Source of the DNA: Bacteroidales bacterium
Lineage (GTDB): Bacteria > Bacteroidota > Bacteroidia > Bacteroidales > JAIOZK01
DNA length: 64,000 bases
Direction of reading: 5' to 3'
Assembly: GCA_021740625.1 (NCBI GenBank)
Contig: JAIOZK010000008.1
Coordinates: 27,627-91,626, forward strand
Of this stretch, positions 11,233 to 20,488 are shown piece after piece; within the stretch, counting starts at the first letter, position 1; the number at the start of each line of letters is the position of its first letter. Under the pieces are notes generated by a model that was not told the origin of the DNA, made no database searches, and was given only the letters and a program-made list of their open reading frames with translations. A program made the translations under genes and the position numbers.

Positions 11233-12021
11233 TTAGGAATAAACATGCACACTGTTTTGTGCCGATGGAAGATAATTGATGCCAAACCAGCAAATCAGCA
11301 AAACGACGAAAGCCAGGGACAATATCCAGAGAGAAGATTTCACGTATTTTCTTTTGTTTACCCTGAAATGGATGTACAGCAAATAGACCAGCCAGGTGAG
11401 AAAGGCCCATGTTTCTTTGGGATCCCAGGTCCAGTAATGACCCCAGGCTTCTTTTGCCCACAAGGCCCCGAAAAGCAAACCGAATGTTAAAAAAGCAAAT
11501 CCGATGTAAACAATGTTGTCTGCCAGTTTTATGGTTTTATCCGTGGATTTGTTCCTGTACATCAGGTAGAGTCCTTTCAGACCCATCAAGGATGAAACAG
11601 CCAGGAAGGCATATCCTATGATATAGACGATCACATGGGGGATGAACCAGGGGCTCCGGAGGGCGGGCATCAGGGTTTTATCGAAAGTATCGGGATTCAT
11701 ATAATTGATGAACAAGAACAATATGGCCATCAATAGGCTGTAGGCAAGCATCCAGAGGAGCTTCCAGCGATAATAAATAATGATACCTATTAGCGAGATG
11801 AATATCGCATACCAGAGCCTTGTTTCGGCCAGTGTTCGGAAAGGGGGCCTTTCCAGGTTCAACCACAAGCCAATGGTGAATATTACAATGGATACAACAC
11901 CTCCGAGCAGAAAAATATCAGGAATCACTTTTACTTTCCTTGGCAAAACGAGTATAATCAGGGCAAGTATCCAAAGCCCTGATGATAAGATCATATAAAT
12001 TGAATAATCAGTCCAGTTCAT
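11233..12021 (-). CDS. ccsA: Cytochrome c biogenesis protein CcsA (system II)
   Basis: WWD domain GALWAKEAWGHYWTWDPKETWA; conserved His in WFIPHV and VHVY. Confidence 0.95.
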   Translation of the reverse strand: MNWTDYSIYMILSSGLWILALIILVLPRKVKVIPDIFLLGGVVSIVIFTIGLWLNLERPPFRTLAETRLWYAIFISLIGIIIYYRWKLLWMLAYSLLMAILFLFINYMNPDTFDKTLMPALRSPWFIPHVIVYIIGYAFLAVSSLMGLKGLYLMYRNKSTDKTIKLADNIVYIGFAFLTFGLLFGALWAKEAWGHYWTWDPKETWAFLTWLVYLLYIHFRVNKRKYVKSSLWILSLAFVVLLICWFGINYLPSAQNSVHVYS

Positions 12022-13246
12022 TTTCAGTCTTTTTCGTTGTTCTTCCCATCCAGACCAGGTAGAGCGATCCCAGCAGCATCATAAAGATTCCCACATAAAC
12101 GACGGGCAGCCAGGGGTCTTTCACGATCTCAACAATACTCACCTGCGACCATTTGCCCATCCTTTCATCATATCCGGTCTGGTAAAGGGTCCATCCATTT
12201 ATTTTAGCGGGTTTGTTCACCTTGATGGTGATATCCTCATATTCTTTCATGGATGTAAAAAAGCGTATTTCGGAACTGTATTCCATGGGTGCGGGTACCC
12301 GCATAGCGATCGCCCAGCGGTCAGAGAGATGCATGAATTTGTTCGGCACAATAAAACTGCCGCTGGTCAGCCACCCCGCTTTAATTTCGTCCGTAATTGT
12401 GTTTCTAACCCTCATATGCACCACCGGGGGAGCCCCGACCCGCTCACTCTCGGTATATCCTGTACTGTCGGGGAATCCGGATTCGTAATATTCATCTATA
12501 TTTATTTCCCACTGGCCGAATTCGGTGTTGAGTCCTTTTTCAACTGCGATCAGTTGTCCCATTTCGTCAATGGCAAACTGACCGGTATTTTTATCGACCA
12601 GCCCGATGCTGGGAGGATATTCCTTGATATGAAAATCGAGTAATTTTATGGCAAAGGGAAGCTGGTATGCCCTGCCCTCACCATCATATGCTCTGAAAAC
12701 GGCCTGGTTCTCCTGCAATGTCATATTTAACCGTCTCAGATCGGATGAACCCAGGGAGGCAGCAACGATGACAATCCATAAACCGGCATGATTCAGGAAA
12801 AAAGCAAAATTTTTAAGGTTCAGGGGGAATGAACGGCGCACTGTGGTATAGCCCAGTATGATCAGCAAATAAAAGGATAACAAGATATAGGGCCAGCTCC
12901 TTGTTACATGTGTCAGACCCAGATCAACCAGCAGTGAACCTCCCGATTCATCTGTTTGCGGAATAAAACCGAGTAACAATACCAGGATGGTAAACAAAGA
13001 AATGGAGGATATAGCTGCAGGCACACTGGACAGCCATTTCATGAAGGGATGTTTCACCATCCTGTAGGAAATATATATATAGGCGATCAAAACGAGGATC
13101 AATATAAAATTGAAGGGCCACCTGGGCAAATAGATCGCATCAACTGGTGATACAAGCTCAATAAAAAAACCCAGAAACAATAATACAATCCCAATGGTAA
13201 AACTTTCCCTGTATCCCCAGGGGTACTCCCAGAACCTTCTTCTCAT
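12008..13246 (-). CDS. resB: Cytochrome c biogenesis protein ResB/CcsB (system II)
   Basis: TM N-terminus, FFLNHAGLW conserved His, periplasmic domain, C-terminal KDPWLPVVYVG helix; overlaps ccsA start. Confidence 0.85.
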   Translation of the reverse strand: MRRRFWEYPWGYRESFTIGIVLLFLGFFIELVSPVDAIYLPRWPFNFILILVLIAYIYISYRMVKHPFMKWLSSVPAAISSISLFTILVLLLGFIPQTDESGGSLLVDLGLTHVTRSWPYILLSFYLLIILGYTTVRRSFPLNLKNFAFFLNHAGLWIVIVAASLGSSDLRRLNMTLQENQAVFRAYDGEGRAYQLPFAIKLLDFHIKEYPPSIGLVDKNTGQFAIDEMGQLIAVEKGLNTEFGQWEINIDEYYESGFPDSTGYTESERVGAPPVVHMRVRNTITDEIKAGWLTSGSFIVPNKFMHLSDRWAIAMRVPAPMEYSSEIRFFTSMKEYEDITIKVNKPAKINGWTLYQTGYDERMGKWSQVSIVEIVKDPWLPVVYVGIFMMLLGSLYLVWMGRTTKKTENELD

Positions 13247-13277
13247 TTTCGATCTTCTCAGTATTGCAAAGTATAGA

Positions 13278-14777
13278 TTAGTATAAATCCCTGTGACATT
13301 CGGCGCAATATGTGGTTTTCCATTCTTCACCAATATCAACGGGGTGCCTGAATTCAAGCGATTCTTCAGCCATAGCATATTCCTTGTTTCCGGGTGTACC
13401 TTGCGCCTTGATCTCGTGGCAGAGATTACAATCTCTTGAAATCACCCTGTTTCCTTTTGAAATGTGTTTATCATTGTGACACCTAACACATCCTTCGGTA
13501 TTCAAATGGCCGATATGATCGGGATATACATCCCACTTCACCTTCATTTCAGGAAAAATATTTTTTTTAAACTCTTCCTGCAAAACAGCAATTGCATTTT
13601 CAATCACAGCCTTATTGGTATCATAGATATCAGGATATAAAAACTCATAATAAAATCTGATTTCTTGTTCAATGTACTCCATGGCACTGTCGGTGGTTGG
13701 GAAATCATTGTTCAAAATATCCATGGCTGCAACTTTAATATCGGGAAGATCTTTGGGTATTCTGCCTGCCGTAATGGCATTATCCACAAACTCCTGCGGA
13801 GGATGGTATTTGTGTGAAGGTCTGTTGTGGCAATCCATACAATCCATTACACGAATTTCGGACTGGTTTATTTTTGATATATCAATGCTGGTATCAGGAT
13901 CCTGGTAAACGACTGACTTGCCGGTTTTCAAATCCGTATACCTCACCCATGGGATGTTCTCCCTTTCCCGGTCGGTGGCATAATATTCAATTTTAACATC
14001 CGGATTGATGTGCCAGTGAATGCCTTCTTTAAATCCGAGGGCTTCATAATTGGAGCCAATCTTCATCTGCATGCTAATATCCCATTCGGTATTTTCGGTA
14101 TTGGCAATATAGTGCTTGCGGTATTGCAGCTTTCTCGAGTAAAACTGTTCCGGCCAGTGGCATTCTTCACATGTTTCCCTGGCAGGGCGCAGGTTCCTTA
14201 CCGGAGTAGGAATGGGTTTGGGATAATTCCCCGTTGTAACAGCATAAACCTGGTACAGGCCCGACATTTTGGATTTTACGTACCAGTCGGCACCAGGACC
14301 TACATGACAATCCACACAGGCTACTCTTGCATGGGGTGATTCCTGGTAAGCTACATACTCAGGTTTCATCACTTTGTGGCATACCTTACCACAAAACTCT
14401 ACCGACTCGGTATAATGATATGCTTCATAGCTTCCGATGGCCGAAAGCATCAAAAAAATAACGGTTCCAAAAGTGAAAATAAAAAAAGCATTTCTGTAAC
14501 GTTTATCATTCAGATCGATTTTGGGCCAGCCACTTTTATGCGCAGGCTCCTTTTTCTTCTCACGTTTCTTTTTAACAAAGGTCCCAATGGGAATCAGGAT
14601 GAGCCCGATCACCAGAAACGCTGGCAATATAATATAAATGAACAAACCGAGGTAAGAACTCCCCTGGTCGAAGATTACGGATACCAGAAAAAGAAATACA
14701 ATAATAAAAAGGCTGACGAGTGCAATGATTGCTCCCATCAGTGATGTCCAGTTGTTAAATGATCTTGGCAGTTTCAT
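13278..14777 (-). CDS. 7-heme NapC/NirT-domain inner-membrane cytochrome c (ImcH-like)
   Basis: Three N-terminal TM helices; CGKVCH plus CVDCH, CEECH, CMDCH, CVRCH, CNLCH, CAECH. Confidence 0.85.
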   Translation of the reverse strand: MKLPRSFNNWTSLMGAIIALVSLFIIVFLFLVSVIFDQGSSYLGLFIYIILPAFLVIGLILIPIGTFVKKKREKKKEPAHKSGWPKIDLNDKRYRNAFFIFTFGTVIFLMLSAIGSYEAYHYTESVEFCGKVCHKVMKPEYVAYQESPHARVACVDCHVGPGADWYVKSKMSGLYQVYAVTTGNYPKPIPTPVRNLRPARETCEECHWPEQFYSRKLQYRKHYIANTENTEWDISMQMKIGSNYEALGFKEGIHWHINPDVKIEYYATDRERENIPWVRYTDLKTGKSVVYQDPDTSIDISKINQSEIRVMDCMDCHNRPSHKYHPPQEFVDNAITAGRIPKDLPDIKVAAMDILNNDFPTTDSAMEYIEQEIRFYYEFLYPDIYDTNKAVIENAIAVLQEEFKKNIFPEMKVKWDVYPDHIGHLNTEGCVRCHNDKHISKGNRVISRDCNLCHEIKAQGTPGNKEYAMAEESLEFRHPVDIGEEWKTTYCAECHRDLY

Positions 14778-14883
14778 AAGTTCATGATTCTTGTTATTTA
14801 CAATGCCCTGCCCTTCTACCTTTGCGTTCAGCTATTTGATAATAAAAATATTTTCAATCATGCTGCTTTTGCAGCACATTCAA

Positions 14884-15504
14884 TCAATCGTGTGTTTTAT
14901 GCCAGCCGTTAAACATGGCCTTAAAGTGGCTCAGGGGTGTGGCCCCGATGGTGCTGAAGTAAATATGAACGATCAGGAAAACCGAAACAAAAAACCCGAT
15001 GATCAAATGCAGGAGGTCTGTCAGATGCAAACCACTGACACCAAATACGTCATGTATGGTGATCTCGGGAAAAAGCAACGCCCAACCCGTAATAATAAGC
15101 AGGGGTATAAATACGTACATAACCACTGCATAGGATATTTTCTGTAGAGGATTGAATTTCCTTTTTTCATTGATCGGGAAAGGCGGCTTTTCGCCCCTGA
15201 ACAATCCAAGCGTGTAATATTTGAACTGTTTCATCAATTCAGTGCTGATGGTACGCAGGTTCAGATGGTAATATCTACCATTACCGGTAATCATGTTCCC
15301 CACAAGAAAGATCAGATAGCTCGCAGTTAAGAGTATACCGGTAATGTTGTGGATGGAAACAGCCAGATCGAAACGCATGAAGGGGAAATCGGGATTCGAA
15401 TATTGCATGCTCAGTCCTGTCAGGATCAAAAGAATGCATAAAACAGCATTTAACCAATGCCAGAACCTCAACCACAGCGGATAGAAATAATATTTTACTG
15501 CCAT
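14884..15504 (-). CDS. Diheme cytochrome b (HydC/FdnI-like, Ni_hydr_CYTB family)
   Basis: RFWHWLNA, SIHNITG, KFNPLQK, LHL...VHIY; four TM helices with paired His. Confidence 0.9.
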   Translation of the reverse strand: MAVKYYFYPLWLRFWHWLNAVLCILLILTGLSMQYSNPDFPFMRFDLAVSIHNITGILLTASYLIFLVGNMITGNGRYYHLNLRTISTELMKQFKYYTLGLFRGEKPPFPINEKRKFNPLQKISYAVVMYVFIPLLIITGWALLFPEITIHDVFGVSGLHLTDLLHLIIGFFVSVFLIVHIYFSTIGATPLSHFKAMFNGWHKTHD

Positions 15505-15513
15505 CTCCTTTTC

Positions 15514-16476
15514 CTATTTATTAATGATACGCAACACTATATGAACACCAATACCCAGCACTACCAATCCAAACAACACAATACTGATGAGATTAAGATA
15601 ATAGTTCCGGTTGGCTCCCACCACATAATATTCACCCAGCAATGCAGAATTGAAGAATCCTGCCTTATTTCTTTCTTCTTTAGCCTGGTAGCGGTAAAGA
15701 GAAGCCATCAGCAATGAATTATCAGAATGACATTCGACACATTTTTTTACAGCCTTTTCTTTGGGTAGTATGTTATGGGCTACCAACAGGGTATCACTTT
15801 GCTCGGCATGGCATTCGATACAGCGCACACTTTTAAAATGCAATGCCTGGTTGGGAAGCCAGTCATGTGTTTCCAGCACATTCGGGTTTTCCCTTTCGGC
15901 TATGAACATGAATTCATCAATATCAGCATGACAATTCAGACAAATTGCATTGTCATAGGCAATTACTTCTTTGATATTTTCTTCAGTTCTTGCGCTGATC
16001 TTATACTCGTGCGGATTATGGCACATCCAGCAACTGAAGGTTTCATTGTGCTTTTGAGAGTGGATGCTTTTTTCGTATTCCGATTGAATTTCTTCGAAAT
16101 TAAATTTGGCCCATTCATCCCCGAATCCATGACAATCCATACAGGAATAGGAAGGTTCCATCCGCAGGTAACCTGGGTGCGGAAATTCTTCATATTCGTA
16201 TGAATGGCAATCAATGCATGTGAAAGTTTTATGGTTGGAATTGTAATATTCTGCAGAATCGATCACATAAAACGGATTCATCCTTTCTCTCACATCTCCT
16301 TCCACCCAATCGTTATAATAACTGTAGTATTTATTCCCATGGCATTTTAGGCATTTTTGGTTTTCCTTAACATTTTCAGGTATGCTGTCAGTTTGCTGAG
16401 CAAACAAACCTGCATTAGCAATCATGAAAAAGAACATCCAAATCAATGCCTGAATTCTCATCCCTTTTATCATCAT
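15514..16476 (-). CDS. 7-heme periplasmic cytochrome c with C-terminal membrane anchor
   Basis: Signal peptide; CLKCH, CIDCH, CMDCH, CWMCH, CLNCH, CIECH, CVECH; C-terminal hydrophobic helix. Confidence 0.9.
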   Translation of the reverse strand: MMIKGMRIQALIWMFFFMIANAGLFAQQTDSIPENVKENQKCLKCHGNKYYSYYNDWVEGDVRERMNPFYVIDSAEYYNSNHKTFTCIDCHSYEYEEFPHPGYLRMEPSYSCMDCHGFGDEWAKFNFEEIQSEYEKSIHSQKHNETFSCWMCHNPHEYKISARTEENIKEVIAYDNAICLNCHADIDEFMFIAERENPNVLETHDWLPNQALHFKSVRCIECHAEQSDTLLVAHNILPKEKAVKKCVECHSDNSLLMASLYRYQAKEERNKAGFFNSALLGEYYVVGANRNYYLNLISIVLFGLVVLGIGVHIVLRIINK

Positions 16477-16554
16477 CTGTTCAGTATGTTTAGGAAAAAA
16501 TGAATGAGGACATCCAGCCAACAATGCCGGACATCCCCATTGATCACAGGCAAA

Positions 16555-16962
16555 TTATTTTTTCAGTGACCTGATGTAGTTTACCACTGCCCAGCGATCT
16601 TCGTCATCAGGGATTTTGCTTTCAAAATTGGGCATTTCATCCCTGCCGATGATGGACATATAATAGATTTCACCATCGTTATATGCTGCCTGAAAATCCT
16701 CCGACGAAAGGTCAAACATAGGCACATCGATCTGTTTGGCCCTGGGTCCGTCGGCTTCACCCTTGTTTCCGTGACAGGACTTACAATTCTTTGCATAAAG
16801 CATTTTTCCGATCCTGTCGAGGCCTTTATCGCCTTTATAAGGATTTTCCATGTTTTTATACTCATCCGGAATTTCCCAGGGGGTTTTATCCCCTTCGGGA
16901 AGTCCGAACGACATCATCAGAAATGCAAAACCTGCAATGAGTGTAATACTTGACTTTTTCAT
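16555..16962 (-). CDS. Monoheme class I cytochrome c
   Basis: Signal peptide, CKSCH, distal Met in EMPNF. Confidence 0.9.
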   Translation of the reverse strand: MKKSSITLIAGFAFLMMSFGLPEGDKTPWEIPDEYKNMENPYKGDKGLDRIGKMLYAKNCKSCHGNKGEADGPRAKQIDVPMFDLSSEDFQAAYNDGEIYYMSIIGRDEMPNFESKIPDDEDRWAVVNYIRSLKK

Positions 16963-17159: not shown

Positions 17160-18020
17160 TTAAAAACTCCACAATCTCGTAATATTAAACCCGAACATGA
17201 TGCCACCATCGAAAAAATCATTGGTATTGTGCATCATGTTATACTGTGGTACCAAGGCCCTTCCGCTGGATACGAACATCTGGAACACGTGGGTACTGGT
17301 AGAGATCTCCCAGCCGATCCCAATGTTGGCCTTGGGTTTTAAAGCCGGTTCATGATGTTCATAAATGCCTTCTATTTCAAGGGGTTGATTCCACTGCAAA
17401 GTTATGGAAGATTGCGGGCTTATCCTGGCCCTGCCGCTGAAAGCGATACCGATCTTGTCGTGCTCATATTCTTTCTGCACTTTATTGATGTGGGAGAAGG
17501 TTGGGGCCACCTGTACGGATATACCATAGCTTATTTTCCGGGAAATGATAAGCGCGGCATAGTAGCTAAAGCGGTTGCTAAACTTGTAATCTTTACCGAA
17601 AACATCTTTCTCCCTTCCATCGATGGCCATGTTTCCATAAAAGGCTACACCTACCGGAATGGTATTTTCACGTGTTTGCTCAAAAACAATATATTTCGCC
17701 CTGAAATCCTGAAGTTTTTGGTCTTTTGTTGTGCCGAGGCCGATCATAAGATTATCCAGCAAACTGTAGTTTAAAGCAAGTCGAATATTGGAGGCCGCAT
17801 AAATCCCCCACAGGTCTTTATGATCTTTTATTTCTCCAAATCTGTGTTCGATCACAAATTCAAGCGTTTTTTTCGTAGGTACAATGACGGTCTGGTTATC
17901 GATTAAAATCCCGCTTTCGAAAGGTGCCCTGACGGGTTTATCTTTTTTCTTCTCTTCCTGTGCAAGCAATGAACCCGCTCCTATGAGCAAAGCAAATAAT
18001 ATGATTGTAAATTTCTTCAT
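17160..18020 (-). CDS. DUF5777-like outer-membrane beta-barrel
   Basis: Signal peptide; HRFG, THVFQ motifs; C-terminal GFNITRLWSF with terminal aromatic residue; paralog at 47380-48288. Confidence 0.75.
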   Translation of the reverse strand: MKKFTIILFALLIGAGSLLAQEEKKKDKPVRAPFESGILIDNQTVIVPTKKTLEFVIEHRFGEIKDHKDLWGIYAASNIRLALNYSLLDNLMIGLGTTKDQKLQDFRAKYIVFEQTRENTIPVGVAFYGNMAIDGREKDVFGKDYKFSNRFSYYAALIISRKISYGISVQVAPTFSHINKVQKEYEHDKIGIAFSGRARISPQSSITLQWNQPLEIEGIYEHHEPALKPKANIGIGWEISTSTHVFQMFVSSGRALVPQYNMMHNTNDFFDGGIMFGFNITRLWSF

Positions 18021-18049
18021 TTTCCCTTTTTTTAAAATGAACAATAGGA

Positions 18050-18430
18050 TTAATTATTTTTGGCACCCTGTTGTATCCATATCAGTACTTTGGCGGCATT
18101 ATCCACACTATATTTATCATGCTGTTCCGCACTATTGGGATCGGGAACAACATACAGGGGGCTGCTTTGAGGATTGGCAGTATCAACAAGATTGTTATTC
18201 TGAATACTCTGGTAAGCCTGTGCTTCCTCGAGCGAAAATGCGATACCTGTAGTACTGTGGCAGGCAACACATCCATCATCCTGGAAGATCGGAACAATAT
18301 CCGATTTAAAGCTCAGGGGAACATCAGGATCTATATCTGGTTTTTTAAGTTCGATAAACTCGTATTCACAGGCACTCAGGAAAGCGATGACCGTGAAAAG
18401 CATGCATATTTGTATAATTTTTTTCATCAT
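18050..18430 (-). CDS. Monoheme cytochrome c lipoprotein
   Basis: Lipobox LSAC; SF..DI.PIF...CVACH...WIQQGAKNN module. Confidence 0.8.
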   Translation of the reverse strand: MMKKIIQICMLFTVIAFLSACEYEFIELKKPDIDPDVPLSFKSDIVPIFQDDGCVACHSTTGIAFSLEEAQAYQSIQNNNLVDTANPQSSPLYVVPDPNSAEQHDKYSVDNAAKVLIWIQQGAKNN

Positions 18431-18461
18431 ATCAGGTCTTTGAATATTATTACAAATTACG

Positions 18462-18495
18462 AAAAAGGCCTCATTGCGCAAACGAAGCCTTTTTT
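18462..18495 (-). terminator. Intrinsic terminator after the hexaheme lipoprotein gene
   Basis: Minus strand aaaaaggcttcgtt-tgcgc-aatgaggccttttt stem-loop with U tract. Confidence 0.7.
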
Positions 18496-18511
18496 CAATA
18501 TGCAATGAACT

Positions 18512-19543
18512 CTATTGCAATGATTCGATTGAGTTTGTCAGGAGGGCTTTGGCGTATTTCATATTGTGTGTTCCGCCGCTTCTGTCCTCAAGTACAAATT
18601 TATAATTGAAAACACCACCAACCTGATCCATTGAAAGGGTAATACCCTCATCTCCGACGGGTACATAACCTGTGCTGTCAAGTGCTCCCTGTGCAATCAG
18701 CAAGCCTTTTAAATCCTCGAGCAGATTATCTATTTCATTTTTGGATTCTTCGATCATGGTTTCAAGATCATCACCTTCGTGGCATTCAACACAGCCTGCT
18801 TCATTTACAACTGCATGACCATGGTAAATATAGCTCGTTCCCATGGTATGTCCTCCTGCCTGGGTTCCATAGGCTGTTGCCATGTGACAGGTAACACAAC
18901 CATCTTCTATCAGTTCGGTGTGTAAAGAATTGTTGTAGCCCATGCTACCGGCAACTTCATAACCGCCACTGCCTGCAAGCATATTTCCCTGGGGACCGTG
19001 ATGGGGACCATACCGCATATTGTCAACCAATACATCACCTCCTCCCGGAACCGGCATTGGATCGGGTACCCGTGACTGATGACAACTTGCACAAAGGTTT
19101 CCTTTGCCCATATCAGCCACTGCCCCATTGATCCAGAACTCAACCGGTTCGGATGTTGTAAATGCCCAGTCTTCTACTGTGTAAGTTTCGTGGATCTTGT
19201 GACATGCATAACAATTAACAGGTGCCGGATTGTTGATCGGCTCGGCTGTCTCCATAGCACCGGTTTCAATAACTTCAACAAATCCCTGACTGGTATGACA
19301 TGGTGCACAACTGGTTCCGTTCCTTTCAAAATTACCACCTGTAGCGTGGGTAGATGCTTCCCACTGAACAGAGGCAGCAAAGATCATCTGGGAATCATCA
19401 TGACATTTGACACATCCTGCTGTTCCGTCTTGCCCATCTTTTCCGTCGGCACCCGCTGGCCCTTCTTTCGTACATCCTGAAATGATCAATGCTGCTGCAA
19501 AGACCATCGCAGTGGATAGTGATAAGAGTTTAAAGTTTTTCAT
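18512..19543 (-). CDS. Hexaheme cytochrome c lipoprotein
   Basis: Lipobox ISGC; GPAGADGKDGQDG linker; CVKCH, CAPCH, CYACH, CASCH, CVTCH, CVECH. Confidence 0.9.
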   Translation of the reverse strand: MKNFKLLSLSTAMVFAAALIISGCTKEGPAGADGKDGQDGTAGCVKCHDDSQMIFAASVQWEASTHATGGNFERNGTSCAPCHTSQGFVEVIETGAMETAEPINNPAPVNCYACHKIHETYTVEDWAFTTSEPVEFWINGAVADMGKGNLCASCHQSRVPDPMPVPGGGDVLVDNMRYGPHHGPQGNMLAGSGGYEVAGSMGYNNSLHTELIEDGCVTCHMATAYGTQAGGHTMGTSYIYHGHAVVNEAGCVECHEGDDLETMIEESKNEIDNLLEDLKGLLIAQGALDSTGYVPVGDEGITLSMDQVGGVFNYKFVLEDRSGGTHNMKYAKALLTNSIESLQ

Positions 19544-19678: not shown

Positions 19679-19692
19679 TTGATAAAAATCAA
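19679..19692. promoter_or_regulatory. FNR/CRP-family box TTGAT-N4-ATCAA
   Basis: Exact ttgataaaaatcaa; near matches at 19635-19648 and 19700-19713; lies between the cytochrome operon and the Crp/Fnr gene. Confidence 0.75.
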
Positions 19693-19792: not shown

Positions 19793-20488
19793 ATGGTGGA
19801 AAGATTCAGGAATTTAATGTGTAAAGATTGTCTCTTCAAGCAACCCTTGTTCAACATTTTGAATCCAAATGAGCTTGAAACATTGAACCAAAATAGATAT
19901 GAAGTCAGGTATAAAAAGGGAGAAACGATATTCAAGCAGGGTTCTGCATTAACGCATATTGCATGTTTTACACACGGCATGGCCAAAATATATATTGAAG
20001 GACTGAACAACAGGAATTTGATCATCAAGATTGTTAAAAGAGGTGAAATGGTTGGCGGTCCGGGTATGCATACTGACTTCAAACATCATTTTACCGTAAC
20101 AACCCTGACGGATACACAGGTGTGTTTAATCGATGCCGAAACCTTTCAGGATGTTGTAAAATCAAACAACAAGTTTGCCCTTGCAATGATGAAAAAAATA
20201 AACACACAGGGCATTAAGAATTTTGAGAAATTTATCAACCTGACCCAGAAACAAATGCCGGGCAGGATCGCAGATGCCATCTTCTACCTTTCAGACTTTG
20301 TGCATGAAAGCGATCATTTCGATGTTGTGATTTCGAGGCAGGACCTGGCAGATATGACGGCCATGACAAAAGAAAGTGCTATCAGGATCCTAAAGGAATT
20401 CAAAGATGCAGGATTGATCAGTGTTGAGGGGAATCATTTTGAGATCCTGGACAAAGAAACGCTCAGAAAGATATGCCGCACCGGCTAA
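19793..20488 (+). CDS. Crp/Fnr family transcriptional regulator
   Basis: N-terminal CKDC, cNMP-binding barrel, C-terminal HTH 'SRQDLADMTAMTKESAIRILKEF'; start may be 19817. Confidence 0.92.
   Translation: MVERFRNLMCKDCLFKQPLFNILNPNELETLNQNRYEVRYKKGETIFKQGSALTHIACFTHGMAKIYIEGLNNRNLIIKIVKRGEMVGGPGMHTDFKHHFTVTTLTDTQVCLIDAETFQDVVKSNNKFALAMMKKINTQGIKNFEKFINLTQKQMPGRIADAIFYLSDFVHESDHFDVVISRQDLADMTAMTKESAIRILKEFKDAGLISVEGNHFEILDKETLRKICRTG

Follow-up and report, generated by a model that had tools for sequence, protein, structure and literature searches.

Predicted ImcH-type and CbcBA-type menaquinol oxidoreductases encoded side by side in a conserved cytochrome gene cluster of Bacteroidales

Introduction

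Which kinds of inner-membrane quinol oxidase are encoded in the cytochrome gene cluster found on contig JAIOZK010000008.1 of a Bacteroidales bacterium (GenBank assembly GCA_021740625.1), and where could their electrons go? The cluster lies in a 64-kb stretch of this contig (positions 27,627 to 91,626 of the forward strand; the whole stretch is called here the window, and coordinates are counted from its first letter), where nine closely packed genes, called here A to I, occupy 11.2-19.5 kb on the minus strand. In Geobacter, the cytochromes ImcH, CbcL and CbcBA set which acceptor potentials a cell respires, the criterion for the ImcH family being its requirement for reducing acceptors above about -0.1 V. 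The original prediction, made from the letters of the window, was that an ImcH-like protein (G) stands next to a CbcL split into two genes (E and F), two potential-dependent routes that are encoded at separate loci in Geobacter being packed here into one operon.

The analysis reported here makes it likely, with the reservations given below, that the products of E, F and G are two distinct menaquinol:cytochrome c oxidoreductases of the inner membrane, of kinds that Geobacter employs in extracellular respiration. The family assignment, the architecture, the conserved ligands and the gene linkage were established in the analysis. Levar et al. (2014) named as the missing piece "what proteins interact with ImcH". 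Linked to each other, to a small group of cytochromes in the periplasm and the outer membrane and to one regulator, the quinol oxidases form a compact candidate pathway, which could explain the iron and manganese reduction and the electroactivity in Bacteroidota.

Gene G encodes a predicted ImcH orthologue

Gene G (13278..14777, minus strand) encodes a predicted heptaheme menaquinol dehydrogenase of the ImcH family. The protein described in the original prediction, with 499 amino acids (aa), three N-terminal transmembrane (TM) helices, one NapC-type CX3CH motif and six CXXCH motifs, is present in the sequence at these positions. Three Geobacter reference genomes were used for comparison, namely a Desulfuromonadales metagenome-assembled genome (G001), G. 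hydrogenophilus (G002) and G. argillaceus (G003); they were found through a PpcA query, whose best match was 92% identical (G001, a near relative of G. sulfurreducens), no record being 100% identical. G found exactly one match in each of these genomes, over its full length and with 41-42% identity (E about 1e-132 to 1e-136), and by blastp it is 41% identical to Geobacter ImcH over 487 aa (E 1e-145, 417 bits). In the reverse search, G was the sole match of the Geobacter ImcH proteins in the 4.0-Mb genome to which the window belongs. The ImcH protein of G001 has 503 aa, three helices, one CX3CH, six CXXCH and the N-terminus MALRKT; the N-terminus of purified G. sulfurreducens ImcH was determined as MTLRKT.

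The likeness extends along the whole protein. Hydropathy peaks lie at about residues 17, 44 and 97 of G and at 16, 46 and 99 of the Geobacter homologues. The CX3CH motif of G (CGKVCH, residue 129), which stands beside the third TM helix as in ImcH of G. sulfurreducens (GSU3259, about 500 aa), and the six CXXCH motifs (residues 154, 203, 313, 430, 450 and 491) all align with those of Geobacter ImcH, and all seven are invariant among 22 homologues. The N-terminal region of G is recognised by the Pfam NapC/NirT model (48 bits). ImcH proteins have been described as having about 495-520 aa and three N-terminal TM helices (PMC6295460), and all the family-defining features given there are present in G.

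Regarding the quinol site, a His and a Gln have been proposed as the ligands of heme 1 in ImcH, with E127, K173 and Y188 conserved nearby (10.1101/2023.05.03.539133). Residues E127, H137, K173, Q179 and Y188 of ImcH align with the identical E124, H134, K170, Q176 and Y185 of G, so that this set of residues around heme 1 is shared by G and GSU3259. Among the 22 homologues, the first four are invariant and the last position is Tyr in 17 and Phe in 5. A grouping of G with NrfH, NapC or CymA instead was also checked. With 55 bits against a cut-off of 134 on the NrfH model, and 16 bits against 311 on the NapC/NirT model, G stays far below both thresholds, and the genome's own NrfH and a five-heme NapC-like protein are the products of other genes. 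In a search of solved structures, NrfH was the sole match to the first part of G (E 1.4e-4).

Taken together, the reciprocal only-matches, the shared architecture and the shared residue signatures bear out the ImcH-like label and, on these sequence grounds, G is an ImcH orthologue. It differs from its Geobacter counterpart by a shorter C-terminal tail and by its surroundings, since G stands in a cytochrome cluster beside a bc module and is followed by ResB and CcsA genes, whereas imcH of G. sulfurreducens-like genomes stands alone among unrelated genes.

Genes E and F encode a predicted CbcBA-type module

Upstream of G, gene E (15514..16476, minus strand) encodes a CbcA-like cytochrome c that has seven hemes, a signal peptide and, at the C-terminus, an anchor helix with a conserved His. 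Gene F (14884..15504, minus strand) encodes a CbcB-like, PhsC-family diheme cytochrome b of 206 aa with four TM helices (PF01292, 96.5 bits). The anchored seven-heme cytochrome and, 9 nucleotides (nt) further on, the diheme cytochrome b of the original prediction are thus found in the sequence. The reading frame of E is open to 16524 from a TTG codon (336 aa); the probable start is the ATG at 16476, which gives 320 aa as in the homologues. In the numbering of the 336-aa frame, the seven CXXCH motifs are at residues 58, 103, 128, 165, 195, 235 and 262. A single C-terminal TM helix lies at about residue 312, and the His of this anchor helix is residue 312 of the 320-aa form. All the heme-motif His of E and all seven heme motifs of G are kept in 19 syntenic Bacteroidota loci, and these motifs are therefore not due to chance.

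The preprint of Joshi et al. (2021) describes CbcA as a cytochrome with seven hemes and a C-terminal TM helix bearing a heme-ligand His, and CbcB as a four-TM protein usually annotated as "thiosulfate reductase-like"; it also reports cbcBA clusters in Bacteroidetes (Prolixibacter, Marinilabiliales, Labilibaculum). F matched CbcB in each of the three Geobacter genomes with 31-32% identity (E 1e-30 to 1e-36), and the sole match of E there was the seven-heme gene, cbcA, directly upstream of cbcB. In the window's own genome, CbcA in turn matched only E, which is without the insertion of about 60 aa present in CbcA, and Geobacter CbcB matched F and a paralogue on another contig (C25) about equally. 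The His of the anchor helix of E, and H16, H52, H166 and H180 of F, are invariant in 25 sequences that include the three Geobacter proteins and the fused forms described below. A search of solved structures with E and F gave no useful match.

On these comparisons, E-F is a bc module of the CbcBA type, the type that forms the third inner-membrane route in Geobacter. It shares with CbcBA of G. sulfurreducens (GSU0593/GSU0594, Cbc5) the order c then b in tight coupling, a heptaheme c with an anchor His, and a PhsC-like four-TM diheme b with the same four His. The Geobacter locus that was matched is followed by a 12-heme gene and preceded by one for a sigma-54 regulator, in agreement with the cbcBA operon of Joshi et al. 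(2021).

The C25 paralogue lies outside the window, in a gene pair (12057-15043 of that contig) that encodes a 547-aa octaheme cytochrome c with a C-terminal TM helix, then a 446-aa protein whose first 215 aa are CbcB-like (35% identical to Geobacter CbcB) and whose remainder is a repeated, sensory-looking extension. A 946-aa gene follows.

In the window E and F are in the same frame, with the TAG stop codon of E and three codons between them. Fused E-F homologues occur in another Bacteroidota class; these proteins of 521-554 aa show 50% identity, have seven hemes and five helices, and match E-stop-F colinearly. A few genomes of the window's own order contain long open frames, which suggests that fusions exist there too. 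The fusions lend independent support, of the Rosetta-stone type, to a physical complex of the CbcA-like and CbcB-like proteins. Programmed read-through of the stop codon between E and F was considered as well and rejected: F is in frame with E at only 5 of 20 related loci, about the level expected by chance, and there is therefore no read-through signal. In two loci of the other class (L111, 7180-11019; L112, 5284-8997), the fused CbcA-CbcB gene is followed by a gene whose product, 714-716 aa long, has eight hemes and an N-terminal helix, and no imcH gene is nearby.

E-F is distinct from CbcL

The original prediction had read E and F as CbcL cut in two, the locus uniting the ImcH route for high-potential and the CbcL route for low-potential acceptors. 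The pair does resemble CbcL (GSU0274), MtoC and MtrH in joining a periplasmic multiheme c to a b part of the HydC/FdnI superfamily; the c domain, anchor helix and b domain of E-F are colinear with those of CbcL, and the fused E-F homologues show the same domain order. By tblastn, CbcL of G. argillaceus aligns across E into F (22.7% over 453 aa, E 1.5e-8), and with E-values of 4e-10 and 2e-7 the c domain of CbcL is weakly similar to E. However, the similarity of F to the CbcL b domain is not significant (E 0.65-3.7), and in a maximum-likelihood tree of 18 b-subunit sequences the CbcL b domain is on a long, separate branch. The Geobacter CbcL homologues were recognised as 618-634-aa proteins with nine CXXCH motifs and 5-6 helices; CbcL carries nine hemes and six TM helices on one polypeptide, whereas E-F has seven hemes and one plus four helices on two genes. 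Geobacter CbcBA is also natively two genes and shares no sequence homology with CbcL (Joshi et al., 2021).

Genuine CbcL homologues could moreover be told apart from E-F. None was found in the window's own genome or in its genus-mate, but sister genomes encode 19-heme CbcL homologues of 931-961 aa (36% identity over 617 aa, E 3e-112), whose b domain is 44-45% identical to that of Geobacter CbcL (E 1e-85 to 1e-89). These proteins are encoded together with E and F in one cluster, and E-F and CbcL are therefore distinct families. We thus rejected a split CbcL, which we regard as extremely improbable: the b domains are unrelated, the heme and helix counts differ, and the pair matches CbcA and CbcB. 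In annotation, such a pair of a heptaheme c and a small cytochrome b should be named CbcBA-type, not split CbcL.

A CbcL homologue is present in about half of the genomes with ImcH, often adjoining imcH. The idea of several redox-tiered routes sharing one locus therefore holds for the clade, where sister genomes have CbcL beside ImcH. Regarding Geobacter, the separate loci assumed at the outset are found in a G. sulfurreducens-like genome but not in G. argillaceus, where a stretch of 17 kb contains cbcBA, imcH and cbcL; separate loci for the three routes are thus not a general rule in Geobacter. The order there (L088, contig C4 of G003, 34-51 kb) is cbcB, cbcA, a sigma-54 regulator gene and imcH, then cbcL 8.5 kb on.

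The cluster is conserved across the order

To find how far E, F and G travel together, a sample of 401 genomes of the order was surveyed. An ImcH homologue is encoded in 65 of them and an F-type gene in 88, and the two occur together in 50 (odds ratio 26, p 2e-26). Of the 49 other genomes that carry the two genes, 25 have them less than 7 kb apart on one contig, usually with F upstream and on the same strand. The gene order of the window is identical in a close relative (GCA_034521425.1), and 18 loci from many families share the Crp/Fnr-family regulator, hexaheme lipoprotein, monoheme lipoprotein, DUF5777 barrel, an optional monoheme c, CbcA, CbcB, a slot, and ImcH. The barrel is present in all 18 syntenic loci, always with the monoheme lipoprotein gene directly upstream, and the D-type cytochrome c in about half of them. 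The Crp/Fnr gene lies beside the cluster in 16 of the 18, usually divergent, and also at locus L108.

The slot between F and G is empty in the window's genome and in six others. Elsewhere it holds either genes for a 4Fe-4S protein and an NrfD-type protein, which are a fourth kind of quinol-interacting module, or the gene for the 19-heme CbcL homologue. At the locus L123 (9172-12632) of G330, and likewise in G489, G327 and G559, a CbcL homologue and a 4-heme c554-like protein are encoded between the CbcB-like protein and ImcH, and all three Geobacter-type quinol oxidases therefore stand side by side. At the locus L124 (9495-12699) of G344, and in G320, G371 and G367, the slot encodes a 4Fe-4S dicluster protein, an NrfD-type protein of about 10 TM helices and a 295-aa Ig-like protein.

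Neighbouring genes and regulation

The other genes of the cluster, all on the minus strand, include those of a possible route through the periplasm and the outer membrane. Gene D (16555..16962) encodes a periplasmic monoheme class I cytochrome c, a candidate electron shuttle (PF13442 and PF00034). Upstream of it, C (17160..18044) encodes a DUF5777 outer-membrane beta-barrel (PF19089, 247 bits), B (18050..18505) a lipoprotein-like monoheme cytochrome with one CXXCH, whose true start is probably internal, near 18430, and A (18512..19543) a hexaheme lipoprotein cytochrome with six CXXCH and a lipobox, which scores 36 bits on the Pfam MtrC/MtrF domain II/IV model. Downstream of G are two genes of System II cytochrome c biogenesis: H (12008..13246) encodes a ResB-like protein (PF05140), and I (11233..12021) a CcsA/CcsB-like heme-handling protein (PF01578, 120 bits; TIGR03144, 152 bits). 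The longest open reading frame of H extends to 13378, so that 101 nt of it coincide with the 3' end of G; its true start is likely the internal Met at 13246, 31 nt past the G stop. The ResB-like gene of the genus-mate (G375) is arranged likewise.

A Crp/Fnr-family regulator (19793..20488, plus strand; PF00027 and PF13545) is encoded divergently from the cluster. Between its gene and A, in the divergent promoter region, lies a perfect FNR/CRP-type box, TTGAT-N4-ATCAA (19679..19692), which is the only exact match in the window. In relatives, equivalent boxes are found upstream of A and, in some, upstream of imcH. A Bacteroidetes-type TAnnTTTG box occurs only in the spacer between C and D. A scan for sigma-70-type promoters gave counts equal to those of shuffled controls and was uninformative. 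Genes A to I may be transcribed as a single operon. The spacer between F and G measures 106 nt in the window and only 46-61 nt in four relatives, which favours co-transcription of E, F and G.

Elsewhere in the genome, contig C24 (34380-50485) carries an ACIII-like set (iron-sulfur protein, NrfD-like protein and monoheme c) beside a fused CcsBA-like gene and a heme-copper oxidase, and contig C33 (20283-22550) a gene for a quinol-type nitric oxide reductase (qNor); NrfHA is also encoded. Since the genome has these systems, the cluster is an additional branch, probably an anaerobic one, and not the main link to an oxidase. The heme-copper oxidase set and qNor indicate that the organism is not a strict anaerobe.

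Proposed function of E, F and G

How could two such oxidoreductases work together? Beyond the gene families, we infer the direction of electron flow, the dependence on potential, the partners and the co-transcription. In G, menaquinol would be oxidised at a NapC/NrfH-like quinol site at the His/Gln-ligated first heme, from which a wire of seven hemes would lead electrons away. The anchor helix of E, with its invariant His, would pack onto F, a four-helix diheme cytochrome of the PhsC/HydC class. Both G and E-F would oxidise menaquinol and reduce carriers in the periplasm, for example the monoheme cytochrome D; the carriers would hand the electrons on to the outer-membrane set of DUF5777 barrel, monoheme and hexaheme lipoproteins, towards the cell surface. 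By analogy with Geobacter, ImcH would serve acceptors of higher potential, while the bc module, whose b hemes carry electrons across the membrane, may work nearer the thermodynamic limit. The Fnr-like regulator would control expression, so that the genes would be active at low oxygen.

Several results speak against this assignment of E, F and G to the extracellular-respiration kinds. E is only 24% identical to CbcA, with six of the seven CXXCH motifs aligned and the seventh heme site displaced. F is slightly closer to genuine PhsC (35.5-36.5% identity) than to CbcB (31-32%), and in the tree mentioned above the F clade, CbcB and PhsC form a polytomy; the CbcB orthology of F therefore rests on the c subunit and on the architecture. 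No sigma-54 BccR-type regulator lies beside E-F, where the neighbouring regulator is of the Crp/Fnr type; sigma-54 regulators were seen only at the Geobacter loci. Strong terminator-like hairpins follow A (18462-18494) and D, the latter lying with a U-run between D and E (16503..16541, minus strand; 16-bp stem, -24.7 kcal/mol, z -2.95), a weaker one lies in the F-G spacer, and the window has no FNR box before E or G, all of which leaves a single operon unproven. The outer-membrane step is an uncharacterised candidate set. Finally, in other Bacteroidota classes ImcH is common, solitary and never beside an F-type gene, which allows a more general role of ImcH.

Such a role would be that of general anaerobic or micro-oxic quinol:cytochrome c oxidoreductases, which would feed periplasmic reductases or oxidases through D and take no part in extracellular transfer. 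D does resemble the monoheme c of cbb3 subunit III type, Fnr-type control would suit any anaerobic respiration, and NrfHA, qNor and a cytochrome c oxidase are encoded in the genome, in addition to the solitary ImcH homologues of the other classes. We nevertheless consider this unlikely, though it deserves attention, because, within the order, the consistent neighbours of E, F and G are an outer-membrane barrel and two lipoprotein cytochromes and not a catalytic reductase, NrfA has its own NrfH, the oxidase has its adjoining ACIII-like set, and about half of the clusters are without D. The electrons might also flow inwards: a Cyc2-like pair of barrel and monoheme protein would take them up from Fe(II), a cathode or a partner and pass them to a cytochrome c, from which they would reach quinone through the bc module, ImcH or both. 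B and C recall a split Cyc2, and D belongs to the class I cytochromes c, such as serve in Fe(II) oxidation. The CbcL/MtoC family has been implicated in both directions; for ImcH, a role is so far indicated in quinol oxidation alone (PMC6295460). Electrons from Fe(II) are ill-suited to reduce menaquinone without an input of energy, and nothing in the cluster points to an energised reverse flow, so that we hold inward flow to be improbable.

The kinship of F with PhsC raises a further alternative, a sulfur-compound reductase acting on thiosulfate, polysulfide or tetrathionate, which F would anchor in the manner of PhsC and in which E would be the electron-transfer subunit. F resembles PhsC of the thiosulfate reductase PhsABC (Salmonella, and plasmid-borne in E. 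coli) in its pattern of four helices and four His over the whole length; it is 36% identical to the Salmonella protein and scores 169.5 bits on the PhsC model NF011582, and the C25 pair, an anchored 8-heme cytochrome then a CbcB-like b, offers a paralogous arrangement. This score is, however, below the family cut-off of 204, and Geobacter CbcB also scores on the same model (122-125 bits). PhsC partners PhsA and PhsB, molybdopterin and iron-sulfur subunits, whereas F partners an anchored heptaheme c; no molybdopterin or iron-sulfur catalytic subunit and no catalytic heme motif was found in or beside the cluster. A sulfur-compound reductase is thus very improbable here, and we retain the assignment of E, F and G to two oxidoreductases of the Geobacter kinds.

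A modular cluster in the clade

We tentatively suggest, as a possibility that goes beyond the assignment of E, F and G, that the clade-wide cluster is a modular, Fnr-controlled, trans-envelope respiratory system. A fixed core of the CbcBA type and ImcH, with a swappable slot of the CbcL or NrfCD type, might tune quinol oxidation to the potential of the acceptor, and all would share a new, minimal outlet made of the DUF5777 barrel and two lipoproteins. If so, a Bacteroidota locus would hold all three redox-tiered entry routes of Geobacter together with a conduit that is neither Mtr nor Pcc. There is a precedent for several quinol oxidases and an outer-membrane conduit in one cluster, the mtr cluster of Rhodoferax ferrireducens with two cymA and one mtrH (PMC6295460); the families there are CymA, MtrH and MtrABC, whereas here a small uncharacterised DUF5777 barrel is accompanied by lipoprotein cytochromes. 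In the literature searched, no paper on DUF5777 was found, and the linkage of E-F and ImcH with optional CbcL or NrfCD modules and the outer-membrane set is unreported. The ImcH and CbcBA proteins are best classed as new members of known families, and the cluster as a variant of the multi-oxidase electron-export clusters. At one of the loci (L116, 13698-19590, G292), the cluster is followed by four tandem paralogues of about 480 aa with C-terminal sorting domains of type IX secretion.

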